From the IMG/VR virus record IMGVR_UViG_3300032254_000001, positions 32,001-96,000 of that record: a DNA stretch of 64,000 bases; one strand, given 5' to 3'. The DNA comes from a virus. Taxonomy: Duplodnaviria; Caudoviricetes. Below, piece after piece: positions 1,938 to 17,145 of this stretch; position 1 is the stretch's first letter, and every line of letters starts with the position of its first letter. The translations under genes were made by a program, and so were the position numbers. Under the pieces are notes generated by a model. It saw nothing but the letters and a program-made list of their open reading frames with translations, ran no database searches and had not been told where the DNA came from.

Positions 1938-1939
1938 GA

Positions 1940-3417: not shown

Positions 3418-3424
3418 AGCGGTA

Positions 3425-3432
3425 TTTATACG
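3425..3432 (-). promoter_or_regulatory. T4-type late promoter TATAAATA (approximate position)
   Basis: Exact motif just upstream of the GGDEF ATG. Confidence 0.65.
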
Positions 3433-3670
3433 TACATTATTACATTAACTTAATACCGTGCTCTATTTATTGTGGGGCAAATCCTACTTCTGTATTGCCG
3501 CAGCAAGGGCATATTGCTTTGGCATTTTGCTTAACGTACTTCTCGTACGACGAGCGCCTAAGCACTGCGGTCCAAGTTGTTTCACATGTAACACAGACCG
3601 CGGATAGTATTACATATTGTGGTGAAAAGGATATTACATTTGACATAATATTACTTATACACTTTAAATT

Positions 3671-3744
3671 TGGAGCTGGTGAGAGGTATCGATCCTCCGT
3701 CTGAAACTTACCAAGTTCCTATTCTACCATTGAAATACACCAGC
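3671..3744 (-). tRNA. tRNA-Thr(GGT)
   Basis: Cloverleaf; atypical T-loop ATCGATA. Confidence 0.85.
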
Positions 3745-3809
3745 TTAATAACATTAATATTGCACACTAACTAACATCCATTCTGTTAATGTGCAAGGTT
3801 TAATGTTAC

Positions 3810-4286: not shown

Positions 4287-4325
4287 GGTCCACCCCCTCT
4301 TGGTTATGTATTACTTATAGTAATT

Positions 4326-4398
4326 TGGTGGTTACCGAGGGGTTCGGACCCTACCTGGCCATCCTTATGAGGGACGGATGTCTCCGCTGACTGTAACC
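4326..4398 (-). tRNA. degenerate tRNA-Met-like (CAT)
   Basis: Loop CT-CAT-AA and CCA; weak D and T arms. Confidence 0.5.
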
Positions 4399-4437
4399 GT
4401 TATGCGGAGGAAGGTAGGTGTAAGTTGCTACCTTCCG

Positions 4438-4848
4438 TTATTCTATCCTGCTTGTGGTACCACTTCCAAACTTACCGTGGTTCCAATTGCCTGTTCCTAA
4501 TTCGTCTAAACTGTGTATATGGATTTCGCAATACGCTGTATCGTGGTCTGCACCATTCCATGCGTTCCAATCCCATTCACATTTATACCATGCTTTCTCA
4601 TCTGCACCTAAATCCTTGTACAGTGAAATTGCTCCGCTTACTGCATGACCCCATGGCGGAATATTGTGATGGCTAATTAAACCAGCATTTTCAGTTACCG
4701 CTGTATAGCGTTGTCCTTCGTGCCAGTAAATAGCTTCTACTTCACCGCCGGATGATCTCGGCTCGCTTGAGCAACCTGCAATAAATGCACCTGCAACAAA
4801 CATAACGACTAACGTGTTAAATGCAGTTGATATAGTTTCGAGTTTCAT
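4438..4848 (-). CDS. hypothetical lipoprotein
   Basis: Hydrophobic N-terminus with IAGC lipobox. Confidence 0.6.
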   Translation of the reverse strand: MKLETISTAFNTLVVMFVAGAFIAGCSSEPRSSGGEVEAIYWHEGQRYTAVTENAGLISHHNIPPWGHAVSGAISLYKDLGADEKAWYKCEWDWNAWNGADHDTAYCEIHIHSLDELGTGNWNHGKFGSGTTSRIE

Positions 4849-4862
4849 AGGATTCCTATTAG

Positions 4863-5105
4863 TTAGTTTACAATTTGTTCTTTCGATTCTGCTAACTGGC
4901 GGGCAATGTCTTCGGCTACTGCAATCTCTTTGCGTATCCAACGCATGAACAATATAGCCTTGTCCTCTGCGTTCATTGCTGCGGTACCTACATCACTAAC
5001 TGGAACTGGAAATTTAAATCCACATTCTGTAGTGTACCATAACTCACCTTCTTTGTAAAAGAGAAACGTCACTTTCTTATCTTTAATCATATCTTTAATG
5101 TTCAT
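4863..5105 (-). CDS. hypothetical protein
   Basis: ORF with AAGGAG RBS. Confidence 0.65.
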   Translation of the reverse strand: MNIKDMIKDKKVTFLFYKEGELWYTTECGFKFPVPVSDVGTAAMNAEDKAILFMRWIRKEIAVAEDIARQLAESKEQIVN

Positions 5106-5129
5106 GCAGTTTCTCCTTTATTGCATTGT

Positions 5130-5205
5130 TGCTAGCGATCAGGAGTCGAACCTGAGGTGTGACTATTAAGAGTCTAATGGTGTCCCCGTCCTCGGGGTCA
5201 CTAGC
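5130..5205 (-). ncRNA. tRNA-like RNA with 8-bp acceptor and 5-bp T-stem (selC-like fold), unclear anticodon
   Basis: GCTAGTGA/TCGCTAGC, D hairpin CCCCG-AGGA-CGGGG, TCAGG-TTCGACT-CCTGA. Confidence 0.5.
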
Positions 5206-5207
5206 GG

Positions 5208-5675
5208 TTATTTTAATACGTCTTTAACGATACCTGACGCAGACTTACCATCGTATAGACCATTGTGTCTGGCCTTAAGCAGTTTCATAACTTCGCCCAT
5301 CATACGTGGTGACTTTTCAGGAAGTTCAACGTCTACTATGTCAACAACTATAGCACGTAGTTCTTCATTAGTCATTAACTTAGGCATATACTTTTCAAGA
5401 ATATCAATCTCTAGTTGAAGCTCTAAAATCTTTGAAGCTTCGGGACTTTCAGCATGGGTACCTGTCTTTATTAAATGCCCCATAGTCTCATTTGCATTCT
5501 TGAGAAACTTCTTCATAACTGCTTGAACTTCAGCATCGGTAGATTCACGATTGCCGTCATTCTTACCAGGCATTGAAGCTTCGCCGATAAGGGTTGTTAA
5601 AATGCTAGCAGCCTCTTTATCTCTAATCTTGCGAGCCGTTAGCTGATCTGCTTTTACCGTTGCCATTAATGACAT
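5208..5675 (-). CDS. GatB/YqeY domain protein
   Basis: YqeY-like helical pattern (EIDILEKYMPK, MGEVMK). Confidence 0.8.
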   Translation of the reverse strand: MSLMATVKADQLTARKIRDKEAASILTTLIGEASMPGKNDGNRESTDAEVQAVMKKFLKNANETMGHLIKTGTHAESPEASKILELQLEIDILEKYMPKLMTNEELRAIVVDIVDVELPEKSPRMMGEVMKLLKARHNGLYDGKSASGIVKDVLK

Positions 5676-5697
5676 ATTGCTTCTCCTGGTTATTGTT

Positions 5698-5780
5698 TGG
5701 TACGTCTGGAGGGAGTCGAACCCTCAAGGGATCGGGGTTTAAACCCGTTAGCTGTGCCAATTTACATAATCCACAGACGC
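5698..5780 (-). tRNA. tRNA-Leu(TAA) without long variable arm, enlarged D-loop
   Basis: Loop TT-TAA-AC, A73, CCA. Confidence 0.75.
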
Positions 5781-5790
5781 ATTGTTAATA

Positions 5791-5907
5791 GGGTGATTAC
5801 CATAGGATTCGAACCTACAAGACGACAGTCTAACAGTGTGACCAAAACTAAGCTATACAAAGTTCCAGCCTAACCACCGAATGTGCTACCAATACACGTG
5901 ATAATCA
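5791..5907 (-). ncRNA. type-II tRNA-like RNA with a ~36-nt anticodon loop
   Basis: 8-bp acceptor, D-arm, stem CGGTG/CACTG, variable hairpin, T-arm. Confidence 0.55.
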
Positions 5908-5912
5908 TTGTT

Positions 5913-5989
5913 TGGCAGGGGAGGAGAGATTCGAACTCCCAACACGCGGATTTGGAGACCGCTGCTCTAGCCATTGGAGCTACACCCCT
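5913..5989 (-). tRNA. tRNA-Trp(CCA)
   Basis: Canonical cloverleaf, G73. Confidence 0.95.
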
Positions 5990-7120
5990 TTAAATCATAC
6001 TCCAGTAATTAGTACGTGGAGTTTCTACATTCTTTGCAATGAAAATAAACTTGTCTGTTTCGTAAACTAGCTTACCTTCTTTCTCGTAAGCTAAGTCTTC
6101 GTCCTGTACGTAAATTTCATCGTATAAATCATCTGGATCAAGCTCAGGAATATCAGCTCTACCCCTAACTTGGTCTGTCCTGGCTACTGCCTTGATCTTA
6201 ATGTAAGTATATCTGTTAGCACTACCTGGCTTAGAAACAAATGGCGTTTCAAATATTTCACGCTCTGTGTCTGTGCCACGTTCGATAATTTTAACAATTT
6301 CAAGCATTGCACCTGAGCTTTCACGTAAGTCAATGTTTAAATCTTCTGTAGTATCTGCAATAGCAGTACCGAAACGTAAATGCTCTTCAACAATTGATTG
6401 TAACATATCAAAGCTGAATATGTTCGAGCGTCTTGATACATCGGTAATATCTTTAACTATTTCTTTGCTTACTCCATTGTCTTGGCAGTAACCAACAATG
6501 CTACCTTCATCCAACTTCTTGTACTTGAAGTGGTAGTAAACACGACTTGGGCGATTCAGCATAAAGTCGTTAATATCAAGTTCGCTGTTCTCAGTCAATA
6601 TGAACATACGCTTTGTTTTATCAACACCGTCCATAAGTGACAACAGTGCCTTTTGTGGTATTTCACCTTCGTTGTTATGTCTATCTGACGATGCATACAT
6701 TTTACCAAATTCATCAAATACAACAGCGCATTCGCCAATTGTTTCAATAAAGTCTGTAAACTGTGAACCAGCATATGCATCTTTAATTAACAGAACTGGT
6801 AGCTCTAAATCAGTGACTACTTTGTTTGCAAGTAAAGACATTAGTAATGTTTTACCTGTACCTTTGTCTCCTGTCAGGAGAATGCCTGTTGAAGTATCGC
6901 GATCCTTGTAAGTGTTTAAACACTTTTCAACGCGACCTGGAGTTTTACCATAAATCTTTTCAGGAAGCTCCAGCTGGTCCTTTGTAATTGTAAGGTAAAA
7001 ACCTTGCAACTGACTATACTGAACAGTATAAATTCTTGGAGGCAAAGCGTCCAGCGTTGTTTCTTCATTCATATTGAATACGTGTACGGTTGAACCGCTT
7101 ACAAAGAACTTAGTTTTCAT
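5990..7120 (-). CDS. AAA+ ATPase
   Basis: Walker A GDKGTGKT, Walker B VVFDEFGK, RPSR arginine finger. Confidence 0.85.
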   Translation of the reverse strand: MKTKFFVSGSTVHVFNMNEETTLDALPPRIYTVQYSQLQGFYLTITKDQLELPEKIYGKTPGRVEKCLNTYKDRDTSTGILLTGDKGTGKTLLMSLLANKVVTDLELPVLLIKDAYAGSQFTDFIETIGECAVVFDEFGKMYASSDRHNNEGEIPQKALLSLMDGVDKTKRMFILTENSELDINDFMLNRPSRVYYHFKYKKLDEGSIVGYCQDNGVSKEIVKDITDVSRRSNIFSFDMLQSIVEEHLRFGTAIADTTEDLNIDLRESSGAMLEIVKIIERGTDTEREIFETPFVSKPGSANRYTYIKIKAVARTDQVRGRADIPELDPDDLYDEIYVQDEDLAYEKEGKLVYETDKFIFIAKNVETPRTNYWSMI

Positions 7121-7202
7121 GTATTAGCCTTAGGTATGTGTTTATTAACTTTTAAGTATTATATGACACTTTTGAGCATTGAGCAACTATTTTGGTAAAA
7201 AT

Positions 7203-7289
7203 TGGTATTCCGGACGGGAATCGAACCCGCTAATTGCTTTCGCAAAGCCTGAGTGAAAGTCAGGTGACCGACCGTTAGTCATCCGGAAT
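7203..7289 (-). tRNA. tRNA-Glu(TTC) with long variable arm
   Basis: Loop CT-TTC-AC; V-arm TTGC-GAAA-GCAA. Confidence 0.85.
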
Positions 7290-7295
7290 ATAATT

Positions 7296-7382
7296 TGGAG
7301 CCAAGAGTGAGATTCGAACTCACGACGGGGTTACCCCTCCGGCTTACAAAACCGGTGCAATCGTCCACTATGCGACCTTGGC
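7296..7382 (-). tRNA. tRNA-Thr(TGT) with long variable arm
   Basis: Loop TT-TGT-AA; V-arm GGGG-TAA-CCCC. Confidence 0.85.
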
Positions 7383-7398
7383 AAGATAAAATGTACTT

Positions 7399-7475
7399 TG
7401 GGGTGAAGGACGAGATTTGAACTCGCATCTGACTCATTCACAGTGAGGGGCTTTACCAATTAAGCTACCGACACC
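7399..7475 (-). tRNA. tRNA-His(GTG)
   Basis: Loop CT-GTG-AA, G-1/C73. Confidence 0.9.
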
Positions 7476-7489
7476 CCAAAATACACTCG

Positions 7490-7515
7490 TAAAAAAGCAG
7501 ACCGGAGTCTGCTTT
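7490..7515 (-). terminator. rho-independent terminator
   Basis: GCAGAC-TCCG-GTCTGC followed by T6. Confidence 0.85.
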
Positions 7516-7516
7516 A

Positions 7517-7700
7517 TGGTTGTGGGACGCGGACTTGAACCGCTGGTAGATTTCCTTCCCAACTAATTTAGCTATGGGCTTCAACTCCACAGCCCAAGAC
7601 AGTAACTCAAATACTTGCCCGAGGCGGTCGACTAGGTAGTCCCCAAGTTATGAGCAAGGGCGATTTATTGTGTAGTCGATACCACACCGAAGTGCCTAAC
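7517..7700 (-). ncRNA. structured RNA ending in a T-arm and CCA
   Basis: GCGG-TTCAAGT-CCGC, GGGAC/GTCCC, CCA, internal helices. Confidence 0.5.
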
Positions 7701-7713
7701 TAAAATTCTAAAA

Positions 7714-7831
7714 TGGTGCCTCCCGCGAGACTTGAACTCGCATGACTTTCGTCGGGGGATTTTATCGAACACCCTTATTTAAAGATGCTCTGTAAAAGTC
7801 CCCTGTGTATGCCTGATTCCACCAGAGAGGC
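7714..7831 (-). tRNA. tRNA-Leu-type gene with a 32-nt insertion in the anticodon loop
   Basis: Leu D-arm, V-arm and A73; stem GGGGA/TCCCC encloses 39 nt including a 10-bp hairpin. Confidence 0.8.
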
Positions 7832-7895
7832 TTTGTTTTTGTTTATTTATTATAACATCATGTGCTTCAAATAAATACCGTATAGGAGAAACACA

Positions 7896-8510
7896 ATGAA
7901 TAGAATACAAGAATACTTACCAAGCTACTGCTACAGTTCATCTAAGATGAAAAGCGTAGATGGTATTGTTATCCACTATTTCAGTGGTAAGTATCAATTT
8001 GCAGATGATCCGTTTAACACTGAAAAATGTTTAAATCTTTTTAAAGACTTAAACCGTCCCGCTAAAGAGCGAGAACACTTTAAGATGAACGATGTGCAAA
8101 AGCGTATGTACGCTTCAGCACACTTCATGATTGCACGAGACGGTACAATATATGATCTAGTTCCACTTCCACAACGTGCATGGCATGCTGGTAAATCCGA
8201 ATGGAACGGTAAGTCGCATTGCAATAACTGGATGGTTGGTATCGAAATGGTTGCTACTGGTAGCAGCGGATACACAGACGAACAGTATAAAGCACTTATT
8301 AATCTTACTGAAGAACTAATTAAAGAACACGATATCTCTTGGGATAACATCACAGGACACGAAAATGTCGCTCCTGGACGTAAAAGAGATCCAGGTTCAA
8401 AGTTTGATTGGGATCGTTATCGCGCAATGAAAGAACCAGCTAAGTTAGCATATGCTGCCGCTATGGCTGAATACATTCCGTGGGCTGACGACGAAGACGA
8501 CGATTTTTAA
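7896..8510 (+). CDS. N-acetylmuramoyl-L-alanine amidase (AmpD-like; candidate endolysin)
   Basis: IVIHY, SAHFMI, AWHAG, GIEM, GHENVAPGRKRDPG motifs. Confidence 0.9.
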   Translation: MNRIQEYLPSYCYSSSKMKSVDGIVIHYFSGKYQFADDPFNTEKCLNLFKDLNRPAKEREHFKMNDVQKRMYASAHFMIARDGTIYDLVPLPQRAWHAGKSEWNGKSHCNNWMVGIEMVATGSSGYTDEQYKALINLTEELIKEHDISWDNITGHENVAPGRKRDPGSKFDWDRYRAMKEPAKLAYAAAMAEYIPWADDEDDDF

Positions 8511-8512
8511 TT

Positions 8513-8598
8513 TGGTGCGCCGGGTGGGTTTCGAACCCACACGCTCTTTCGAGCACGAGGTTCTTAGCCTCGCATGTCTGCCATTCCATCACCAGCGC
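8513..8598 (-). tRNA. tRNA-Leu(AAG)
   Basis: Loop CT-AAG-AA, long V-arm. Confidence 0.85.
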
Positions 8599-8600
8599 AT

Positions 8601-8683
8601 TGGTACGTCCGGTGGGATTCGAACCCACAAAGGTCTGGTGTTTGAAACCAGTAGCTGTGCCAATTTACATTAACCACGGACGC
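8601..8683 (-). tRNA. tRNA-Leu(CAA) without long variable arm, enlarged D-loop
   Basis: Stem CTGGT/ACCAG, loop TT-CAA-AC. Confidence 0.8.
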
Positions 8684-8691
8684 ATTACATT

Positions 8692-8774
8692 TGGTACCTG
8701 GGGCGGGAGTCGAACCCGCAAGGGTCTGGAGTCTAAATCCAGTAGCTGTGCCAATTTACATTAACCACCCAGGC
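8692..8774 (-). tRNA. tRNA-Leu(TAG) without long variable arm, enlarged D-loop
   Basis: Stem CTGGA/TCCAG, loop TT-TAG-AC. Confidence 0.8.
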
Positions 8775-8780
8775 ATAATT

Positions 8781-8856
8781 TGGTAGGACGACAGGGCCTC
8801 GAACCCTGATCACAACGGTTAAAAGCCGCGTCTCTGCCCACTTGAGTTACCGTCCT
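8781..8856 (-). tRNA. tRNA-Lys(TTT)
   Basis: Loop CT-TTT-AA. Confidence 0.85.
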
Positions 8857-8862
8857 ATAATT

Positions 8863-8938
8863 TGGTGGACCGCCCCGGCAACGATCCGGGAACTTCTCGG
8901 GTAAGAGCCGAGTACTCTGCCAATTGAGTTAGCAGTCC
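8863..8938 (-). tRNA. tRNA-Lys(CTT)
   Basis: Loop CT-CTT-AC; T-loop ATCGTTG. Confidence 0.85.
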
Positions 8939-8944
8939 ATAATT

Positions 8945-9031
8945 TGGTGGGGCGACAGGGATTCGAACCCTGGATGTCCTTTCGGATCGTCTGATTAAAA
9001 GTCAGGTGCCATACCGCTTGGCGACCGCCCC
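8945..9031 (-). tRNA. tRNA-Lys(TTT) with long variable arm
   Basis: Loop CT-TTT-AA; V-arm TCC-GAAA-GGA. Confidence 0.85.
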
Positions 9032-9032
9032 G

Positions 9033-9060
9033 TAAAAAAACCTAGCAAGCTAGGTTTTTG
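9033..9060 (-). terminator. rho-independent terminator immediately 5' of tRNA-Lys
   Basis: AAAAACCTAG-CTTG-CTAGG-T7. Confidence 0.75.
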
Positions 9061-9165
9061 TTTGTATGTTAGTTTTATCCTTCTTCAAAAAGGACATCCA
9101 GGGTTCGAACCGATATCATAATCTATTGTTTACCAACATACGGTATAAATTGTGGTCGCGCTAGA

Positions 9166-9414
9166 TTATGCGGTTGCTACTGTGTCTGTTTCAGTTAACT
9201 TTGCAGTAACTTCGACGCCACGGCATTTTAGAACTGTTAGTGCTTTCTGATGAAACTTCTTCTGGCCTTTGTTGCTCAGAACTTCCATGAGTGCTTCTGT
9301 TGACATTGTGTGTGCTGATTTACCACCTTTACGTGTTCCGATTAAGAACTTATGTGCTGGTGCTGCAACAACTAGGCCGCTTTTAGTTTTCTTTGTTGAA
9401 CGATTCTTTGGCAT
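9166..9414 (-). CDS. small basic hypothetical protein
   Basis: AGAGG RBS before MPKNRST. Confidence 0.6.
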   Translation of the reverse strand: MPKNRSTKKTKSGLVVAAPAHKFLIGTRKGGKSAHTMSTEALMEVLSNKGQKKFHQKALTVLKCRGVEVTAKLTETDTVATA

Positions 9415-9491
9415 TACTATTTCCTCTGTTAAGGGTTTAAACAAAAACAGCGACAATATTGCCGCTGTTTTTAATTACATTTACGTTACTT

Positions 9492-10775
9492 TTAGAAACG
9501 TTGTGAATACGATGCTTGTAATTCGTACTGGTCCATTTTCAATGATACAGTTTGTGCATCAAAGCCTGTTGGTCCAGTAATAGTATTACTTGGCGCGTAC
9601 ATTGCAGCTAGTGAGAACTCTGAAGTGTCACTTAGCGGAGTTGTGAAACCAGCTGTGTAGTGGGTTTCTATTACTGCTGGAGCTAAAATGTTGAACATGT
9701 TCTGTCCATCTGTAATAGGCTGTTCAGCGTGTGAAACACCTAAGCGGTACTTAGTAGATGTACCAAACTCATAACCGAACTTGTAAATGGTCATATCTTC
9801 CCAACCAAATCCAGCACCGTTCTCACCGCCTAAGCGACCTGAACCGTCTTGGTAAGCCATTAAGTTTTGAACACTATTACCAATTGAGTCAACATCACCA
9901 TAAGCGATATGTTGTGCATCAAATACTAATGTAGTTGTTGGAGAAGTTTTAATAGCTACGCCTAATGTCGCTGTAGCTGGAATATTAAATTCACCACCGT
10001 TAGCAAATAAACCTGAGTAGTCTTCTAACAAGCTCATGTTAATTTGTGACTGGTAAGAAGCACCAAATGCTATAGGACCAGCGTCACCCTGCCAACCTAC
10101 TTTGATGCCAATACCTGTTGAAATATCAGCGTCATTGTTAGTTAGTTTAGATGCGTCTGTTGACATCTGACCAAACATTTGCAAGCCTTTAGCTTCGAAT
10201 GTCTGTATAGCTGTTACAGCACTAACGCCAATTGCGTGATGCTTATCGACTTGATGTGATAATGAAGCGTTAATGAATAACTGTTTCAAATCTACACCAG
10301 CAGTACCACCGCCAAATGTACCAGAAGCGCCTGGAACCGTCATTGCCATTGGAGAAGCAACACCTTTGTATTCTGTGTTCATGCCACCGCTTCCGTAAAC
10401 AGAAACACCAATTGCTGTTACGTCGCTAATCATTTTGTTATAACCAAAATGTGGAATTGCAAAGTAATCGTTGTCACTTTCGGCTGTACCTGGCATTAAT
10501 GGGAAAGTACCTGGTTGTCCGGTTGGATTGCCTTCTACCGTGTATTCACGACGTGGGCTAAAAATAGCTAAACCAACATCTAGTCGCGTACCTACTTTGA
10601 CCATGCCTGCTGGGTTAGTTGCTGATGCTAATGCATCCTGTGAGTATGCAACACCGGCGCCAGCCATACCTTTTTCTTTGGTACTGTATCCGTGTGCAAA
10701 ATATCCGTTTGTTGCAAATGCAACTGATGACGACATTAATGTAGCTGCCGCGATTGCCATTGTTAGTTTTTTCAT
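9492..10775 (-). CDS. OmpP1/FadL/TodX family outer-membrane transporter
   Basis: Signal peptide, ATNGYFAHGY..GMAGAGVA, NPAG hatch motif, terminal Phe. Confidence 0.9.
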   Translation of the reverse strand: MKKLTMAIAAATLMSSSVAFATNGYFAHGYSTKEKGMAGAGVAYSQDALASATNPAGMVKVGTRLDVGLAIFSPRREYTVEGNPTGQPGTFPLMPGTAESDNDYFAIPHFGYNKMISDVTAIGVSVYGSGGMNTEYKGVASPMAMTVPGASGTFGGGTAGVDLKQLFINASLSHQVDKHHAIGVSAVTAIQTFEAKGLQMFGQMSTDASKLTNNDADISTGIGIKVGWQGDAGPIAFGASYQSQINMSLLEDYSGLFANGGEFNIPATATLGVAIKTSPTTTLVFDAQHIAYGDVDSIGNSVQNLMAYQDGSGRLGGENGAGFGWEDMTIYKFGYEFGTSTKYRLGVSHAEQPITDGQNMFNILAPAVIETHYTAGFTTPLSDTSEFSLAAMYAPSNTITGPTGFDAQTVSLKMDQYELQASYSQRF

Positions 10776-10857
10776 TATAATTGTTTCCTCAATATTGATT
10801 GTTAACGTAAGTTAGTATACATATTGAGAACAAGTAAGTCTACTCGTTTGGCTAAAT

Positions 10858-10931
10858 TGGTACCCAGTGTTGGAATCGAACCAACGTCTCCGCCTTGTAA
10901 AAGCGGCGATAATCCCCTCAGCTAACCGGGT
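10858..10931 (-). tRNA. tRNA-Val(TAC)
   Basis: Loop TT-TAC-AA; weak D-stem. Confidence 0.75.
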
Positions 10932-10937
10932 GTAAAT

Positions 10938-11013
10938 TGGTATCTCCAGTAGGAACCGAGCCTACAACCTTCGCTATGTTAAAGCGATGCTCTACCAGTT
11001 GAGCTATGGAGAT
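10938..11013 (-). tRNA. tRNA-Val(AAC)
   Basis: Loop TT-AAC-AT; T-loop CTCGGTT. Confidence 0.75.
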
Positions 11014-11015
11014 AT

Positions 11016-11090
11016 TGGAGCTCTTACCCAGAACCGAGCTGGGATTTCAGCGTTACGAGTGCCGTGTTCTGCCTGTTGAACTATAAGAGC
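11016..11090 (-). tRNA. tRNA-Thr(CGT)
   Basis: Loop CT-CGT-AA; T-loop CTCGGTT. Confidence 0.8.
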
Positions 11091-11094
11091 AATT

Positions 11095-11170
11095 TGGTAT
11101 CCCTGACTGGATTCGAACCAGTATTCCAAGACTTAGGAGGTCCGGCGTTGTCCAGTTGACTTACAAGGAT
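11095..11170 (-). tRNA. tRNA-Arg(CCT)
   Basis: Loop CT-CCT-AA. Confidence 0.75.
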
Positions 11171-11176
11171 ATTGTT

Positions 11177-11252
11177 TGGCGTCCCCGGTAGGATTCGAAC
11201 CCACATTCTTCGGCTTAGAAGACCTAGCGTTCTCCAGTTGACTTACAGGGAC
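11177..11252 (-). tRNA. tRNA-Arg(TCT)
   Basis: Loop CT-TCT-AA. Confidence 0.8.
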
Positions 11253-11258
11253 ATAATT

Positions 11259-11339
11259 TGGCGCCCACGGTAGGGTTCGAACCTACATTTGCATCCAATT
11301 ACCTTACTCGACGTTCGTAGCGCCGGGGGTTACGTGGGC
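11259..11339 (-). tRNA. D-armless tRNA-Arg(ACG) with long variable region
   Basis: Acceptor, anticodon and T arms intact; D-arm replaced by TAACCCC. Confidence 0.7.
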
Positions 11340-11346
11340 AGTATTT

Positions 11347-11438
11347 TGGTACCTCTACCAGGATTCGAACCTGGACTACTCGCTAATCTGGCGATACGAC
11401 CGTATAAAAGTCGTGTGCTACCGTTACACTATAGAGGT
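11347..11438 (-). tRNA. tRNA-Ile(TAT) with long variable arm
   Basis: Loop TT-TAT-AC; V-arm TCGC..GCGA. Confidence 0.8.
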
Positions 11439-11445
11439 GCAGTGC

Positions 11446-11522
11446 TGGTGGGCCTTGTAGGATTTGAACCTACGACCAACGAATTATGAGTTCGCTGCTC
11501 TGACCAGCTGAGCTAAAGGCCC
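11446..11522 (-). tRNA. tRNA-Ile2(CAT)
   Basis: CAT anticodon; body resembles ileX-type tRNA. Confidence 0.75.
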
Positions 11523-11528
11523 GATGTT

Positions 11529-11614
11529 TGGTAGCGAGAGTAGGAGTCGAACCTACGAAACCTTTCGGTATAGGGTTATGAGCCCCATCACTTTATCCAC
11601 TTGTATATCTCGCG
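11529..11614 (-). tRNA. initiator-type tRNA-fMet(CAT) with long variable arm
   Basis: C1:T72 mismatch, three G-C pairs in the anticodon stem, V-arm ACC-GAAA-GGT. Confidence 0.75.
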
Positions 11615-11710
11615 TCAATAAGTTACATCACTTACTATGATTCGGCCGAACCACGGATAGTGATGCTTTCCCGGCAAGTATTGTAAGCGGCCGCTTAATT
11701 TCCTTGCCTT

Positions 11711-11786
11711 GCATACCAGGTGGGACTCGAACCCACATACACAGCCTTCAACGGCTGCCGCTGTTCCAATTCGCGTACTAGCGTAC
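11711..11786 (-). pseudogene. degenerate tRNA
   Basis: T-arm intact, 6-nt anticodon loop, weak acceptor, no CCA. Confidence 0.45.
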
Positions 11787-11797
11787 TTCTTTAAATT

Positions 11798-11873
11798 TGG
11801 TGCATCCTGTTGGTAACGCTCCAACTCCTATGGGGTTTCAATCCATTGCTTCTACTTAGTTAGCTTAGGATGC
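11798..11873 (-). tRNA. tRNA-Phe(GAA)
   Basis: Loop TT-GAA-AC; T-loop AGCGTTA. Confidence 0.8.
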
Positions 11874-11878
11874 ATGTT

Positions 11879-11952
11879 TGGTAGTTCCAGAAGGACTTGA
11901 ACCCTCATAGACCGGTAATCGGCCGGCAGCCTTACCATTAGACGATGGAACT
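11879..11952 (-). tRNA. tRNA-Ile(GAT)
   Basis: Loop CC-GAT-TA (lacks U33). Confidence 0.75.
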
Positions 11953-11958
11953 ATTGTT

Positions 11959-12046
11959 TGGTACTACCGGTTGGAGTCGAACCAACTGTAAGGAATTACC
12001 CTTGCACGGTTATCAGCCGTGTGCTTAACCGTTCAGCGTCGGTAGT
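11959..12046 (-). tRNA. tRNA-Ile(GAT) with long variable arm
   Basis: Loop CT-GAT-AA; V-arm AAGGG-TAAT-TCCTT. Confidence 0.85.
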
Positions 12047-12052
12047 ATAATA

Positions 12053-12149
12053 TGGCGGAAGAGGGCGGACTCGAACCCCCACAGCGCAGGATCGCTACGC
12101 TGACCGGTTTTCAAGACCGGGCCGATACCAAATTTCGGTTGACTCTTCC
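12053..12149 (-). tRNA. tRNA-Ser(TGA)
   Basis: Type II cloverleaf, G73. Confidence 0.9.
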
Positions 12150-12242
12150 ATTAATTCGTTCGCGACGTTCGATGCAATTGGCTCCGTCCACGACACTGAC
12201 ACTAACCGTTACCATTGCACACGGTTGACGTGTTTGTAAAAT

Positions 12243-12329
12243 TGGCGGAAGATGTGAGATTCGAACTCACACAGCCTTACGGCTGTACTCCTTAGCAGGG
12301 AGCTATGTTACCAGTTGCATCAATCTTCC
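12243..12329 (-). tRNA. tRNA-Ser(GCT)
   Basis: Type II cloverleaf, G73. Confidence 0.9.
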
Positions 12330-12397
12330 AGTAATAGTGTTGGGCCATATAGATTCAGATTCTACTGTAAATTGTTTGACAACACTACATTTTAAAA

Positions 12398-12530
12398 TGG
12401 GGCAATGTGTTGGAGTTGAACCAACTATAACTAACGACAAACTTTACGTATCATCGCTGCAGGCTAGTTACGCTCCGCTGTAGCTACTAAACCGTTAGTG
12501 CATTAACCAACAATTATGCTATACACCGCC
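12398..12530 (-). ncRNA. His-like tRNA body with a long (~55 nt) anticodon-loop insertion
   Basis: 8-bp acceptor GGCGGTGT/ACATTGCC plus CCA, stem CTAACG/CGTTAG, T-arm. Confidence 0.6.
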
Positions 12531-12541
12531 ATTGAATTTGA

Positions 12542-12679
12542 TTGAGGAAAGTGGAACCACTTTTTATGGCGGCTGTGCTACCGTTACACTACATGCCAGC
12601 ATTCCTGGTACATGGGAGGAGTCGAACCTCCACTTGCTGCTTGGCTTATTTTAGAAGGAAGTAAATCCCATAGCCTCAA
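12542..12679 (-). ncRNA. Y-RNA-like (YrlA-type) RNA with a circularly permuted tRNA module
   Basis: GAGG-CTA-stem-TCCTTCT scaffold enclosing a T-arm, loop-closed acceptor stem and D-arm. Confidence 0.65.
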
Positions 12680-12880
12680 ATTTTTGTTACTTTTTCGATT
12701 CATCTATTAGGTGCTTAATAGCCCTTAGTGAACGTAAGTCTACTTCCGCTTGCTTGCGAAAGATTGGATTTTTTTGTGTTTTTAAAACTTCAACCAGTAA
12801 GTTAATTTTCTGGTTTAAACGTTCTATTGTTATATTAATGTACTCATGTTAATACCCTCTATGGTAAGTGTATTTATGAT

Positions 12881-12966
12881 TGGTGCTGCCTGTAGGATTC
12901 GAACCTACTCATCCAGTGGAATCGGGTTTACAATCCGACGTGACTCTCCATCTTCACCGCGACAGC
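12881..12966 (-). tRNA. tRNA-Tyr(GTA)
   Basis: Loop TT-GTA-AA, V-arm. Confidence 0.85.
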
Positions 12967-12978
12967 GTAATTTTAATT

Positions 12979-13065
12979 TGGTGGATCTAGTTGGATTCGA
13001 ACCAACAATGCCAGAAGCGCCGAGTTTACAGTCCGGTGGTAGCAACCAGTTCTACCATTAGATCC
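12979..13065 (-). tRNA. tRNA-Tyr(GTA)
   Basis: Loop CT-GTA-AA, V-arm. Confidence 0.85.
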
Positions 13066-13071
13066 ATTGTT

Positions 13072-13157
13072 TGGAAGCGACGGTGAGGGTCGAACTCACA
13101 ATGCCCGAAAGCGCCAGATTCAAAGTCTGGTGGGGTTACCAATTTTCCTACATCGCT
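13072..13157 (-). tRNA. tRNA-Gln(TTG) with long variable arm
   Basis: Loop CT-TTG-AA; V-arm GCT-TTCG-GGC. Confidence 0.85.
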
Positions 13158-13167
13158 ATAATTTATT

Positions 13168-13242
13168 TGGAGACTCTACTCGGTTTCGAACCGAGGCTTG
13201 AAGATTTGCAATCAACCGCACTACCAATTATGCTACAGAGTC
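13168..13242 (-). tRNA. tRNA-Cys(GCA)
   Basis: Loop TT-GCA-AA, U73. Confidence 0.8.
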
Positions 13243-13250
13243 AAAGTGTT

Positions 13251-13322
13251 TGGCACCGCGACAAGGTGTTGATCCCTGCAAGCCGGGGGTTGGAATCCCA
13301 GCACCTCCCCGGAGGCCACGGC
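13251..13322 (-). tRNA. atypical selC-like tRNA, anticodon probably CCA (Trp)
   Basis: D hairpin GCCTC-CGGG-GAGGT, 8-nt anticodon loop ATTCCAAC, G73, CCA. Confidence 0.5.
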
Positions 13323-13335
13323 ATTAAAAAGGTAC

Positions 13336-13444
13336 CTTGTAAGCTCTCGTTAGACTGATTAACTACCGCGTGTAGTCGCGTTCTAACAATAGGCGTGTAC
13401 TGACGCCTCGTTTTACTTGTGATGCATTGCATCCTTCTTACAAG
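13336..13444 (-). ncRNA. multibranch structured RNA candidate
   Basis: Closing stem CTTGTAAG/CTTACAAG with three internal hairpins. Confidence 0.5.
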
Positions 13445-13518
13445 CAGCCCTGTACAGGATTCGAACCTGTGTTTCCAGCCTTCACGGGCCGGTGTCCTAA
13501 CCACTAGACGAACGGGGC
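13444..13518 (-). tRNA. Glu/Asp-body tRNA with 8-nt anticodon loop (CCGTGAAG)
   Basis: Intact D and T arms, no CCA. Confidence 0.5.
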
Positions 13519-13669
13519 ATAAAAATCGTGGAACTGATCATATTACAAAACAGTACCTAAACACTGTTACAATGCAATAAGGGTAGCGCAAAGTTCCGTA
13601 GCCTATATTCTACCATTTTCTGACTTCACTGCATATGCATAATTAGGTTGCACATACATCACATCAAAT

Positions 13670-13932
13670 TGGCTGTGACAGTTGGGTTCGAACCAACGTT
13701 ACCGGCTCAAATCGCTTATGCTGGGTGCCGGTGTTTTGCCGCCTACTTGCTTTCATTGTACACTTTCTTGATAAGTTTCTTTTAGCTTTTGCACGTCTGG
13801 CCTGCTCAATCCTTTCAAAAGAGTCTGGTAGTTTTTATAGCCTAAGCGATTGTTACCATTGGTGTTACTAACTAAGGTACTTCTCAACATTACTAATGCA
13901 GTCTTACTAACTTTCGTCTAAACTACATCACA
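13670..13932 (-). ncRNA. tRNA gene with a large D-loop insertion carrying a 45-codon ORF and a 20-nt anticodon loop
   Basis: Acceptor TGTGATG/TGTCACA-G-CCA, D-stem GTTT/AAAC, CCGGC/GCCGG, T-arm. Confidence 0.7.
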
Positions 13933-14007
13933 ATAAATTCTTGCAGTTTCTCCGACTCGATCCGTTAACTAGTATGGATGTCCGTACAATGCCTCGTAGA
14001 AGTAAAT

Positions 14008-14081
14008 TGGTGGACACGCGGAGAGTCGAACTCCATCTTCCTCATTGCAAAAGAGGTGCTTTCCCGTTAAGCTAACGGCCC
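14008..14081 (-). tRNA. tRNA-Ala(TGC)
   Basis: G3:U70, loop TT-TGC-AA; imperfect acceptor. Confidence 0.75.
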
Positions 14082-14161
14082 ATGATTTGGAGGAAAGGGT
14101 TGGCTTTTCACCAACTATAAACGGTAACAGAGAACGTTGTGTTACCTCACTCGCCATTGTT

Positions 14162-14235
14162 TGGTGGAGATTCGGAGAATCGAACTCCGATCAAAGCGTT
14201 GCAAACGCCCCGTAATCCCGTTATACTAAACCCCC
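14162..14235 (-). tRNA. tRNA-Ala(TGC)
   Basis: G3:U70, loop TT-TGC-AA. Confidence 0.9.
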
Positions 14236-14256
14236 AATTGTTTGGCTTTATAAATT

Positions 14257-14331
14257 TGGCTCCGGTAGCTGGAATCGAACCAACCTGCCACAGATTAACA
14301 GTCTGCTGCCACACCTTGCGGCCCTACCGGA
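14257..14331 (-). tRNA. tRNA-Asn(GTT)
   Basis: Loop CT-GTT-AA, G73. Confidence 0.9.
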
Positions 14332-14332
14332 A

Positions 14333-14776
14333 TTATCCGTATTGCGGTAATCCCCTAGCCTTGCGACCTTTACCTGTGTTTTTTGCGCCAAATGTTTCTT
14401 GTTGACTATCACAGTTTGGACATACCATTTGAAAATTGTCTGGATGATCGTTTGATGCATTGCCGTCAATGTGATCACACCATAGTGAAATAGGTTTATT
14501 GTTCCAGCTATCGATGCCACAGATATTACATTTATTGCCATCCCGCTTAATAACAAATTCTCTGATCAGCTTTCTCGGAGTTTTTAATCCTAAGTCACAT
14601 CCTGCTAACCAATCCTGATATCGTTTCTCAAATAACTTTTGCGATTTATCTTTTCTATAATTTATATTACACACTGTACTACAAAATTTATGATTATAAC
14701 TATAACCTTTGAACTTAAATTCTGTACTACAATGACCGCATATAAAAGTTTCGTCTTTTTTCCTTTTGATGTTCAT
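14333..14776 (-). CDS. HNH endonuclease
   Basis: CNICG, DHIDGNASND...VCPNC. Confidence 0.85.
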   Translation of the reverse strand: MNIKRKKDETFICGHCSTEFKFKGYSYNHKFCSTVCNINYRKDKSQKLFEKRYQDWLAGCDLGLKTPRKLIREFVIKRDGNKCNICGIDSWNNKPISLWCDHIDGNASNDHPDNFQMVCPNCDSQQETFGAKNTGKGRKARGLPQYG

Positions 14777-14954
14777 ATGGTAGAGCCTTTTAAAATAGTT
14801 ATATTTTATTTATCACTCTACCACCTGAACAGAAATTTTAAACTACTTTATCACGACATTGATCGCCACCACAGCAACCCTGTTTCGTTCAATTTCGTTA
14901 AGGTAGCATTACACAACTTCACCGGTTAAGATCCGCCTTCATGTAACCCTTAAT

Positions 14955-15040
14955 TGGCTCCGAGAGTAGGGATCGAACCTACGTTGTTTACACAAGCCTA
15001 TGGTTAACAGCCACGCGCATTACCACTCTGCCACCTCGGA
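14955..15040 (-). tRNA. tRNA-Asn(GTT) with long variable arm
   Basis: Loop CT-GTT-AA; V-arm TTGT-GTAA-ACAA. Confidence 0.85.
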
Positions 15041-15048
15041 ATTATAAA

Positions 15049-15189
15049 TGCTCTTACTGGGGCAGGCTGGGATTCTAACCCACAACGACTTGACTATTGT
15101 CGCGTTTGCATGTAACGCACCGAGGGTCAACTCGTCAAGTTCCACGCCTTTACATACCCGCGGTATGCTTCTCTGCCCCAGTAAGAACA
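15049..15189 (-). ncRNA. tRNA-like RNA with a 17-bp terminal helix
   Basis: Terminal inverted repeat, T-like arm TGGG-TTAGAAT-CCCA, CTTGAC/GTCAAG arm with two hairpins. Confidence 0.55.
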
Positions 15190-15199
15190 CTTTTAAAAT

Positions 15200-15273
15200 T
15201 GGAGCCTGGTAAGGGACTCGAACCCTCATCTGTACGTTGGCAACGTACGGTTCTACCGTTGAACTAACCAGGC
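15200..15273 (-). tRNA. tRNA-Gly(GCC)
   Basis: Canonical cloverleaf, U73. Confidence 0.95.
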
Positions 15274-15274
15274 G

Positions 15275-15952
15275 TTATTCTTGTTTTAATACTCTACCTT
15301 TTTTAAAACCTTCTGGTATAGTATCATTCTTTTTGATCTTTTTATTAATTGTTCCGTCTGTTATCCACATCGTTCCGTACTGTGAATTGCCACTGCCTTG
15401 CTGACACTTAGATGAATTTGCACCTATAGCATCTTTTGTTTCTTGTGTATGCTTCTTATTTTTAAATGTACCGTGACCGTAGCGTTCAAGTATAGTTGCT
15501 TTAATCTTTTGTCCTGCTTGCTTGAACGATTCAGGCGTTCTATTTTTACCTGACATTTTACCAATGATACTCTTGAAATCATCACCGTACTTTTCTAGTA
15601 ATATACTATCTGTTATTTCTCGTGCCCTGCGATTCTTTTGAATACGTGCCTCTTCGTTAGAGTTTATATAATCCCATCCACCAAAGCCACCAACCTTAAG
15701 ATTGTATGTATTTTCTTCTGCAATAAAGTCTTTATTAACTATTTCGGCTTCTTTATTAAACATATCTTCTGGATTGTCAAATACATGTAAAATTTCTTTG
15801 CTAAAATTTTCAACACCGTGTTTATTAATTGCATAGTTAAGGTACTTTCCTGAACCTAAATAACCATCGTTTAAGTTACTGGTCTTATGCGCGCCTATAT
15901 AGACCTTGCCTGTAACTTTATTTGACGTCTTATAAATTGTATAGTAAACCAT
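15275..15952 (-). CDS. GIY-YIG (Seg-like) homing endonuclease
   Basis: YTIYKTSNKVTGKVYIGAH..YLGSG, E and YNL motifs; NUMOD3-like tail. Confidence 0.9.
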   Translation of the reverse strand: MVYYTIYKTSNKVTGKVYIGAHKTSNLNDGYLGSGKYLNYAINKHGVENFSKEILHVFDNPEDMFNKEAEIVNKDFIAEENTYNLKVGGFGGWDYINSNEEARIQKNRRAREITDSILLEKYGDDFKSIIGKMSGKNRTPESFKQAGQKIKATILERYGHGTFKNKKHTQETKDAIGANSSKCQQGSGNSQYGTMWITDGTINKKIKKNDTIPEGFKKGRVLKQE

Positions 15953-15991
15953 ACTATTATTTATGACGTTCGAGTCCATATCGAACTCTAA

Positions 15992-16072
15992 TGAGCGGGT
16001 GACGAGAATCGAACTCGCCATGCTTTCGCGTCTGGTTGGAAACCAGGTTCCACACCTTGTGGACTCACCCGC
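15992..16072 (-). tRNA. tRNA-Gly(TCC) with extended variable arm, CCA not encoded
   Basis: Loop TT-TCC-AA; V-arm GC-GAAA-GC. Confidence 0.8.
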
Positions 16073-16082
16073 ATAAATTAAA

Positions 16083-16194
16083 TTTGTAGCCTTGCCCATT
16101 ACTCGCAAATGTCACACTGGTCCTCAGAATTGAACTGCCACGGGCGGGTATATTCTGCCCCGCCCTGCAAACCATTGCTAACCAGCACTACAAA
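16083..16194 (-). ncRNA. tRNA-like domain nested in an outer stem
   Basis: TTTGTAG/CTACAAA enclosing CTGGT/ACCAG, D-like, 7-bp and T-like arms. Confidence 0.45.
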
Positions 16195-16197
16195 ATT

Positions 16198-16278
16198 TGG
16201 CGTCCAGCGTCGGTATTGCACCGCACTCCTACTCCAGTAACGTTATCTCTGGAGCAACACGTCTCATGTTGACTGAAC
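16198..16278 (-). ncRNA. tRNA-like RNA with 6-bp D-stem and 11-nt anticodon loop
   Basis: Acceptor plus G-CCA, CAACAT/GTGTTG, CTCCAG/CTGGAG. Confidence 0.5.
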
Positions 16279-16287
16279 ATATAAAGT

Positions 16288-16360
16288 AGAGGAAAGTGAA
16301 AACACTATTCGGTTTGATTAAAAGTCAATTTTTAGAAGGAAGTGAACTTTCATAGCCTCT
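16288..16360 (-). ncRNA. Y-RNA-like RNA displaying a tRNA-Lys anticodon stem-loop
   Basis: Same scaffold as 12542-12679; insert TTGA-CTTTTAA-TCAA. Confidence 0.6.
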
Positions 16361-16365
16361 TTATT

Positions 16366-16384
16366 TGGTGCCCTGTTACAGGGC
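16366..16384 (-). ncRNA. tRNA acceptor microhelix with A-CCA end
   Basis: GCCCTG-TAA-CAGGGC-A-CCA. Confidence 0.4.
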
Positions 16385-16390
16385 GATATT

Positions 16391-16465
16391 TGGCGACGTA
16401 GAAGGGAATCGAACCCTCATTGTACTGATAGACAATCAGCTGCATTACCAATCTGCCACTACGCC
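16391..16465 (-). tRNA. tRNA-Asp(GTC)
   Basis: Loop TT-GTC-TA, G73. Confidence 0.85.
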
Positions 16466-16740
16466 GTAATTCTTTTCTTACATCCCCAAGTATCTGTTTG
16501 TCTATGACAGTTAGGGCAAAGCAATCTTAAGTTAGATGGAAATGCATTTTCTACATCTCCGTCTATATGATCTAAATCTAATACAATTGGCTTATTTTGC
16601 CATTCGTTTATTCCGCATATTGCACAGAACTCACCGTCTCTTTCCACGACATACTTTCCTGCTTCTATCAGTGGTACTTGTACAGTTTTCCATTGATAAG
16701 CTTGCTGACATGTGTTGTTGCAAGGCGCTTATTACTCCTT
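16459..16740 (-). pseudogene. HNH endonuclease remnant
   Basis: CAICG, DHIDGD..N..LLCPNCH; upstream CNNTCQ zinc motif follows in-frame stops and has no start codon. Confidence 0.7.
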
Positions 16741-16783
16741 TTGGAACCCTTCGCATTATATCGCAGTTGATACTATTTAAAAT

Positions 16784-16859
16784 TGGTCTCTCTGCGAGGA
16801 TTTGAACCTCGGACGCTCCGCCCCAAACGGACCATGTTACCAGACTACACTACAGAGAG
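16784..16859 (-). tRNA. tRNA-Pro(TGG)
   Basis: C1-G72, loop TT-TGG-GG. Confidence 0.9.
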
Positions 16860-16870
16860 ATTAAACTAAT

Positions 16871-16954
16871 GAGGAAATTGATATTACTAAACCAGTTGCC
16901 CTAAGGGCATCTTTGGAGTCGAACCAAAATAGAAGGAAGCAATATCATAGCCTC
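16871..16954 (-). ncRNA. Y-RNA-like RNA with a T-arm and acceptor-like hairpin
   Basis: Same scaffold; TTTGG-TTCGACT-CCAAA plus TGCCC-TTA-GGGCA. Confidence 0.6.
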
Positions 16955-16958
16955 GAAA

Positions 16959-17032
16959 TGGTCAGGGTGGCGAGAGTCGAACTCGCTTCTTGAGTGTCCA
17001 AGACACACGGATTGCCGTTTTCCCACACCCTG
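16959..17032 (-). tRNA. tRNA-Pro(TGG)
   Basis: Loop CT-TGG-AC. Confidence 0.85.
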
Positions 17033-17071
17033 TTAATCACACGTCTTACGGCTCTAATGCCTGCGCTATGT

Positions 17072-17145
17072 TGGTATCCCGAAGGGGTATCGATCCCCTG
17101 TTGCCAAGTTGAAAGCCTGGAGTTCTACCATTAAACTACCGGGAT
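17072..17145 (-). tRNA. tRNA-Glu(TTC), first gene of the array
   Basis: Loop CT-TTC-AA; T-loop ATCGATA. Confidence 0.85.

Follow-up and report, generated by a model that had tools for sequence, protein, structure and literature searches.

A conserved tRNA-shaped RNA in the tRNA array of a giant phage, in which a D-loop insertion probably clamps the enlarged anticodon loop

Phages have been known to carry tRNA genes for more than 50 years. The roles of these genes are still debated, with codon supply on one side and escape from tRNA-cleaving host defences on the other, and tRNA-targeting defences are thought to shape the tRNAs that phages carry (PMC10264068). Several RNAs that borrow parts of the tRNA shape have been described. 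The YrlA-type Y RNAs of bacteria and phages are non-coding mimics of the T and D arms of tRNA (Chen et al. 2014, PMC4201824), and the tRNA cluster of phage T4 holds two small stable RNAs of unknown function, RNAC and RNAD (species 1 and 2; PMC3014915, PMC9697503). In archaea, tRNA introns can sit in the D loop (PMC3978253, a review of disrupted tRNA genes). Here, we describe a tRNA-shaped RNA gene of 263 bases, located at positions 13670-13932 on the minus strand of a stretch of 64,000 nucleotides (the window) that corresponds to bases 32001-96000 of the IMG/VR virus record IMGVR_UViG_3300032254_000001. The record (344,483 bp, direct terminal repeats, 40% G+C) belongs to a giant uncultured phage with about 45 tRNA genes. 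Its proteins and one of its tRNAs resemble counterparts in Vibrio phages and T4-type phages, and the host is therefore presumably bacterial. The gene probably encodes a stable, structured, non-decoding tRNA mimic that is conserved between phages and locked by a pseudoknot. A search of the literature found no account of a phage tRNA mimic with a D-loop graft or a pseudoknot lock.

The tRNA body can be read directly from the sequence. A preliminary description of this DNA had listed the acceptor stem, G73, the CCA end, the D stem, the anticodon stem and the T arm as intact, and all of these were confirmed base by base on the minus strand, as were the enlargement of the D loop by more than 150 nt and that of the anticodon loop to 20 nt. 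With canonical tRNA (RF00005) the RNA shares the 7-bp acceptor stem, the discriminator and CCA, the 4-bp D stem, the 5-bp anticodon and T stems, the TTCGAAC loop, the nucleotides of the elbow, the strand and a place inside a tRNA array. It differs in its D loop of about 183 nt compared to 7-11 nt, in an anticodon-like loop of 20-21 nt with a C at the place of U33 and a 9-bp pairing to the insert, and in its invisibility to the usual detectors: ARAGORN, with introns and tmRNA allowed, made no call at 13670-13932, and Rfam gave no match in a gathering-threshold scan of the window or in a scan of 13520-14010 at E<=10. When the 271 nt upstream were shuffled, a 7-bp acceptor partner and, correctly spaced from it, a 4-bp D-stem partner turned up at any position in 76 of 200,000 shuffles (3.8e-4). 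Since the 5' half fits so rarely by chance, the tRNA-shaped observation is confirmed as real. The 175 nt that separate GTTTAG from GCGGCAAAAC fall precisely into the D loop's variable pocket. This pocket (positions 16-17) accommodates extra bases in tRNA. The elbow nucleotides U8, A14, G15, G18-G19, A21, C48, T54-T55-C56 and A58 are the same in the window phage and in a second phage, G007, which carries a homologue, and GG-N-A stands directly 5' of the 3' strand of the D stem in both. Judged by established tRNA structure, the kept elbow nucleotides and an insertion confined to the variable pocket let us expect an L-shaped body for this RNA.

Newly found here is a 9-bp pairing of the insertion core with the enlarged anticodon loop. 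Neither this pseudoknot nor the conservation of the RNA was part of the preliminary description. Helix enumeration identified AATCGCTTA and TAAGCGATT as perfect complements over 9 bp. At the homologous place G007 has ATCGCATTG and CAATGCGAT, which likewise form nine perfect pairs with different sequences, and a 1-nt indel is compensated there, with an extra T in the loop facing an extra A in the insertion core. For each phage, 0.3% (about 0.003) of shuffled insertions formed a helix of at least 9 bp. The enlarged loop measures 20 nt in the window and 21 nt in G007 and is 86% identical between them. It departs from a normal anticodon loop in that there is neither a 7-nt loop nor a free triplet, C occupies the place of U33, and nine of the loop bases are paired to the insert. 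Because the 9-bp pairing occurs in both phages, the apparent anticodon loop is, as far as sequence can tell, the partner strand of a long-range helix, with ACCCAGCA left unpaired.

Relatives of the locus were reached through an odd D-arm motif of three Leu-type tRNA genes in the same array, which recurs in 12 other IMG/VR contigs, all of them related viral contigs. A BLAST search with the RNA over these 12 records found a match in one, the jumbo-phage record G007 (378,912 bp), in the form of two tRNA halves 273 nt apart. The homologue is located at L037:7505-7770 and, exactly as in the window phage, lies on the tRNA strand inside a tRNA-rich region. G007 was also the only true match of a covariance model of the 3' domain in the 12 records; a weak match in a further record, G011, turned out to be an ordinary long-arm tRNA-Asn. 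Scanning metagenome contigs with the conserved loop recovered the contig of G007 itself and the near-identical contigs L036 and L038, besides three chance matches in GC-rich coding DNA. Among genome contigs the loop pattern had one candidate match, in a contig of an Acidobacterium metagenome-assembled genome. In IMG/VR, exact-pattern scans with the T arm plus the 3' acceptor strand and with two core 21-24-mers gave no match, and scans with the loop pattern and with the 5' junction plus TGGTAAC matched G007 only.

Comparison of the two phages reveals compensatory changes throughout the tRNA body (Table 1 gives the strands). In the acceptor stem G2:C71 is replaced by C:G and A5:U68 by U:A, and two G-U pairs become Watson-Crick pairs. 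The anticodon stem and the T stem carry one double change each (C:G to U:A and U:A to G:C, respectively), while the change in the D stem is one-sided. A one-base bulge in the T stem is present in all three contigs of the G007 type. The tRNA parts are 76-88% identical. The insertions are of nearly the same length, 175 nt in the window and 176 nt in G007, at only 44% identity, and have in common both junctions and the islands TGGTAAC, ATCGC, GGCT, AAAAA, TTGAGC and CAGRCCAG. This pattern suggests that the length and position of the insertion and its islands are selected, and not its overall sequence.

A third sequence comes from a cold-seep metagenome contig in the public contig collections. It spans 13728-13933 with 86% identity, and its 29 differences include no indel. 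The 24 listed changes fall into the blocks 13761-13798 and 13862-13899, with none listed for the 63 nt in between (13799-13861). The contig runs on into the upstream tRNA-Ala and skips the 69-nt spacer 13934-14002 that separates the two genes in the window, so that the RNA of the cold-seep relative starts 6 nt past the CCA of the tRNA-Ala, which is the usual spacing in the array. When RNAalifold was given the window and the cold-seep variant, it paired the two variable blocks with each other in a long irregular hairpin, with three double compensatory changes, five one-sided changes and no broken pair. Three or more double changes were reached in 2% of trials with column-shuffled and in 6% with randomly mutated alignments, and the covariation of the long hairpin is therefore suggestive, short of decisive. 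Its inner helix TGGT/GCCA (13858-13855 / 13801-13798) is also present in G007, in the form TTGGT/ACCAG. The preliminary description had drawn attention to the near-direct repeats TAGACG/TAGGCG that bound the insertion. The repeats are there, but they have lost their meaning, since G007 has TAGAGG and TACGTG at these places; the TAG units are the D-loop nucleotides A14-G15 and those just 5' of G18-G19. A target-site duplication was considered and rejected, because the repeats are unconserved, terminal inverted repeats are absent and the insert is single-copy.

Table 1. Elements of the tRNA-shaped RNA and related features, in window coordinates, with the corresponding strands of G007; helices are predicted.
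Feature	Position	Strand	Sequence or remark	G007
Likely 5' end of the RNA	13932	minus	5' start of acceptor strand	
Acceptor stem	13932-13926 / 13680-13674	minus	TGTGATG / TGTCACA; 7 bp, two G-U	TCTGTTG / CAACAGA
U8-A9, D-stem 5' strand, A14-G15	13918..13925	minus		same
D stem	13923-13920 / 13736-13733	minus	GTTT / AAAC; 4 bp	GTTT / GAAC
D-loop insertion	13743..13917 (boundaries +/- ~2 nt)	minus	175 nt, between positions 15/16 and 17/18	
Long irregular hairpin, 5' arm	13855..13882	minus	includes conserved TGGT 13858-13855	
Apical core of insertion	13802..13854	minus	inside the 63-nt block unchanged in the cold-seep variant	
Pseudoknot 5' strand	13843..13851	minus	AATCGCTTA; insertion core, invariant in the cold-seep variant	
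Long irregular hairpin, 3' arm	13773..13801	minus	includes GCCA 13801-13798	
D-loop 3' part and D-stem 3' strand	13733..13742	minus	G18-G19 at 13740-13739, A21 at 13737	
Anticodon stem	13731-13727 / 13706-13702 (arm 13702..13731)	minus	CCGGC / GCCGG; 5 bp	CTGGC / GCCAG
Anticodon-like loop	13726-13707	minus	ACCCAGCATAAGCGATTTGA; 20 nt	
Loop 5' part, presumably single-stranded	13719..13726	minus	ACCCAGCA	identical, also in L036 and L038
Pseudoknot 3' strand	13710..13718	minus	TAAGCGATT; inside enlarged loop	
Variable loop	13701-13698	minus	TAAC (C48)	
T arm	13697-13681	minus	GTTGG-TTCGAAC-CCAAC	stem GGTG(T)G / CCACC
Discriminator G73 and encoded CCA	13673, 13672-13670	minus		
45-codon ATG open reading frame	13753..13890	minus	ATG 13890 to TGA 13753; 54 open codons from 13917	
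tRNAs with paired long variable arm (Glu, Thr, Lys, Ile-tat, Met, Ile-gat, Gln, Asn)	7203-7289, 7296-7382, 8945-9031, 11347-11438, 11529-11614, 11959-12046, 13072-13157, 14955-15040	minus		

Among the described tRNA-like RNAs, tmRNA (SsrA) is similar in that an acceptor/T-arm domain with a CCA end is combined with a large extra domain containing a pseudoknot. However, there are clear differences. In tmRNA an extra domain, with helix 2, takes the place of the D and anticodon stems, whereas here both stems are present and covary, and it is the D loop that houses the extra domain. The topology is thus unlike that of tmRNA, as had been noted before. The G3:U70 pair of tmRNA is absent, position 3:70 being U:A in both phages, the conserved tag reading frame of tmRNA, with its resume codon and stop, has no conserved equivalent, and an ARAGORN search of the phage genome for tmRNA found none. 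The YrlA-type Y RNAs are alike as non-decoding RNAs that mimic tRNA arms. The two ends of YrlA build the stem with the Ro60-binding site, and its tRNA-like module lies internally or is permuted, whereas the ends of the RNA described here are an acceptor stem and a free CCA, and its internal part is the extra domain; the YrlA family (RF02553) was not among any matches of the Rfam scan of 13520-14010 at E<=10. T4 RNAC ends in a hairpin that resembles a T arm (CCGGG-TTCGAAT-CCCGG), and RNAC and RNAD share the location in a tRNA cluster, but blastn-short found only T-loop words in common, and the predicted fold of RNAC has no cloverleaf, no D-loop graft and no pairing between a loop and an insert. 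The RNA thus resembles other tRNA mimics, yet it lacks what defines the tmRNA, YrlA and RNAC/RNAD families.

Several other explanations have to be weighed against a non-decoding mimic. The preliminary description had suggested a tRNA-mRNA hybrid, in which the insertion would be translated into a peptide of 45-54 residues or serve as a template for a tmRNA-like tag. Its 54-codon open frame with ATG 13890 and TGA 13753 does exist in the window and was confirmed by reading. Of the homologues that were to be sought, those of the RNA and of its tRNA halves were recovered in G007, but the frame itself is unconserved: the listed changes of the cold-seep variant put two in-frame stops after codon 33, and in the corresponding frame of G007 there is neither an ATG nor a similar peptide, with the TGGTAAC island read there as TTG-GTA-ACA instead of GGT-AAC. 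No reading frame is conserved across the three sequences. The cold-seep substitutions are distributed 10/7/5 over codon positions 3/1/2, which is not codon-like; no Shine-Dalgarno sequence lies 5' of ATG 13890; and the peptide matches no PHROG family. With neither G3:U70 nor a tmRNA call in the genome on its side, the hybrid is barely credible, and we judge the frame to be a chance open frame. Another idea is that of a dead tRNA gene that was hit by an insertion and now drifts neutrally. It would agree with the silence of the tRNA detectors, with the A+T-rich and not unusually stable insertion, and with the pseudo-tRNAs that phage arrays carry, such as the one annotated tRNA-Pseudo-1 in KVP40. 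Yet compensatory changes maintain four stems and the pseudoknot although less than half of the insertion is identical, the length of the insertion is kept, a block of 63 nt is unchanged although the variant as a whole shows 14% divergence, and the elbow nucleotides are intact. The covariation, the kept length and the invariant core make a pseudogene very improbable, and the earlier suggestion of a decayed insertion is rejected on the same covariation of the stems and constant length.

An interrupted tRNA gene deserves somewhat more attention, although we consider it unlikely. Here an unknown nuclease would cut out the 175-nt insert, and perhaps 13 extra loop bases, to leave a ligated or a nicked two-piece tRNA that works and possibly reads UGG through a CCA triplet in the loop. 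Joining the exons restores a canonical 8-nt D loop (AGGCGGCA), the phage encodes an RNA ligase of the T4 Rnl1 type, the loop starts with A-C-CCA-G, and enlarged anticodon regions occur in other genes of the array too. Like intron-containing tRNA genes, among them those of bacteria with group I introns in the anticodon loop and those of archaea with bulge-helix-bulge introns, this is a tRNA gene interrupted by extra sequence. To our knowledge, however, tRNA splicing in bacteria and phages proceeds solely through group I introns, and known group I introns are larger than 175 nt. Neither group I (RF00028, with its conserved P3-P9 catalytic core) nor any other Rfam family matched at E<=10 in 13520-14010, and wherever the boundaries are drawn, a 5' exon with a terminal U and a canonical D loop are never obtained together. 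An 11-bp hairpin of the 5' exon with 13904-13894, which contains a U-G pair, looks like the P1 helix of a group I intron, but it is not evident in G007. The phage genome encodes no splicing endonuclease of the EndA type (PF01974) and no RtcB, and the predicted folds contain no bulge-helix-bulge, for which no dedicated search was made. Excision would not produce a usable anticodon loop, because the loop would still have 20-21 nt with C in place of U33, and the conserved 9-bp pairing ties the supposed intron to a distant exon loop and not to a splice site. No intron-less allele came to light among the relatives, and a normal tRNA-Trp(CCA) is already encoded at 5913-5989. An intron removed by an unknown route, as proposed earlier, is hence unlikely. 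The tRNA shape might also be no more than a scaffold for processing and stability. Activity would then reside in the insert or in the exposed ACCCAGCA, which would work as a small RNA that pairs with a target or as a protein-binding aptamer, outside tRNA biology. The unchanged 63-nt core and the invariant 8-nt single-stranded motif would fit such a role, and the T4 tRNA cluster also yields small stable RNAs, RNAC and RNAD, without an assigned role (PMC3014915). But a scaffold needs neither a conserved anticodon-like stem nor a pseudoknot that fills the anticodon loop, and no target was identified. It differs from a mimic chiefly in which end of the molecule is regarded as active, and we regard it as quite improbable.

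Some observations weigh against a conserved, pseudoknot-locked mimic. Just two well-separated lineages and one partial variant are at hand, so that few sequences support the covariation. A single contig of low depth (3.45) supplied the reconstructed cold-seep variant, with five of its 29 differences unplaced, and one sequencing run leaves 13761-13976 uncovered. In terms of minimum free energy the insertions are no more stable than shuffled sequences (z +1.7 and +0.9), and the same holds for the whole RNA (z +0.5). Apart from the TGGT/RCCA helix and the pseudoknot, the fold given for the insertion is tentative, and in G007 a competing pairing between TATTGGTA and TACCAATA is possible.

The gene lies in a dense tRNA array. 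ARAGORN and Rfam each detect 38 tRNA genes in the window, all on the minus strand, all but one of them within 1469-17145, and nearly all with an encoded CCA. The tRNA-shaped RNA gene occupies a stretch of 492 nt (13519-14010) for which neither program calls a gene, and the sequence of its insertion is single-copy across the 344-kb genome. A related-locus search with the neighbouring proteins of 427 and 318 amino acids yielded no relatives. The adjacent tRNA-Ala(TGC) (14008-14081, minus strand) is also missed by ARAGORN. KVP40-like Vibrio phages have a gene of 87-88% identity to it, which is annotated there either as tRNA-Pseudo-1 or as tRNA-Ala. Two reading frames on the minus strand between tRNA genes look like endonucleases, a Cys/His-rich, HNH-looking one of 147 amino acids (14333-14776) and a GIY-YIG (SegE-like) one of 277 amino acids (15275-16108); they recall segB of the T4 tRNA cluster. 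Distant from the array, a solitary minus-strand tRNA at 61267-61340 has the anticodon CTA and is of the amber-reading suppressor type (labelled Pyl by ARAGORN).

Many further aberrant tRNA-like genes are found in the same array, again on the minus strand. Eight tRNAs whose identity normally goes with a short arm bear a paired long variable arm (Table 1), and most of these have a normal copy with the same anticodon elsewhere in the array. The three paralogous Leu tRNAs mentioned above (anticodons TAA, CAA and TAG, at ~5700-5782, ~8603-8686 and ~8694-8776) are devoid of a long variable arm; they have an enlarged D region in common (…ATGTAAATTGGCACAGCT) and are detected by neither ARAGORN nor Rfam. 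A Leu-type gene (taa) at 7714-7831 has perfect acceptor, variable and T arms, while its anticodon stem is prolonged to a hairpin of ~20 bp with an AAAT cap that replaces the 7-nt loop, which ARAGORN interprets as a 32-nt intron; none of the 12 related records contains a homologue. At ~12397-12541 lies a candidate tRNA-like gene unseen by both detectors, with the acceptor GCGGTGT/ACATTGC followed by C and CCA, the D stem GCAT/ATGC, the T arm GTTGG-TTCAACT-CCAAC and an anticodon stem CTAACG/CGTTAG that encloses ~55 nt. The neighbouring 12542-12679 is arranged as a back-to-front tRNA module, in which a T arm and CATGTA-CCA precede a closing hairpin and, last, a D arm. A tRNA-like RNA of ~77 nt at 13243-13322 ends in GCCA and combines a 6-bp stem (CCGGGG/CCCCGG) closing a 17-nt loop with a T-like hairpin whose loop is ATCAACA. 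The Arg(ACG)-type gene at 11256-11343 has a good acceptor stem (GCCCACG/CGTGGGC), an anticodon arm and a T arm, with just 7 nt at the place of the D arm and a variable region of 22 nt. The gene at 1632-1750, called a tRNA-Arg(ccg) with a 47-nt intron by ARAGORN, is devoid of CCA and harbors a second T-arm-like element (GAGGTTCGATTCCTC) within the supposed intron; it may consist of two fused or rearranged tRNA pieces. Finally, tRNAs with anticodon loops of 6 and 8 nt (ARAGORN anticodons 'tg' and 'gtga') and no encoded CCA are located at 11711-11784 and 13446-13518.

How might a non-decoding mimic of this kind operate? Lying on the same strand with the same spacing and an encoded CCA, the RNA would be transcribed with the phage tRNA operon. 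The intact acceptor/T-arm minihelix probably allows maturation in the manner of tRNA, with RNase P acting at 13932 and a ready-made CCA end. The 175-nt domain in the D-loop pocket would form its long irregular hairpin, and nine base pairs would tie the conserved apical core of this domain to the two-thirds on the 3' side of the 20-nt loop found in place of a 7-nt anticodon loop. With the anticodon end clamped in this way, and with neither U33 nor a free triplet, reading of codons should be impossible, and the invariant ACCCAGCA would stay exposed beside the pseudoknot. Such an RNA could occupy or recruit a factor that recognizes the tRNA shape, for instance a host defence nuclease that targets tRNA, an enzyme that processes or modifies tRNA, or a ribonucleoprotein of the phage. 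That it is a decoy or an adaptor for a tRNA-binding factor is a guess of low certainty. More tentatively than for the mimic as such, we consider it possible that we are dealing with a previously undescribed architecture of a natural tRNA mimic, a CCA-ended tRNA body in which a domain grafted onto the D loop clamps the RNA's own expanded anticodon loop, much like a covalently linked complex of T-box Stem I and tRNA. Together with the other anticodon-blocked look-alikes of the array, it might then belong to a repertoire of "locked" decoys or adaptors that jumbo phages direct against host defences or enzymes recognizing tRNA.

The locus illustrates that conserved genes in phage tRNA arrays can escape the standard tRNA finders. 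The RNA keeps the features by which processing enzymes and binding proteins would take it for a tRNA, while its decoding end appears to be occupied under selection, which points to a use of the tRNA shape that is unrelated to decoding. Should the RNA act as a decoy or adaptor, phages would have in it a counter-measure or regulator of a new kind, and it would be a natural case of a tRNA scaffold that presents a large RNA domain on its D loop.

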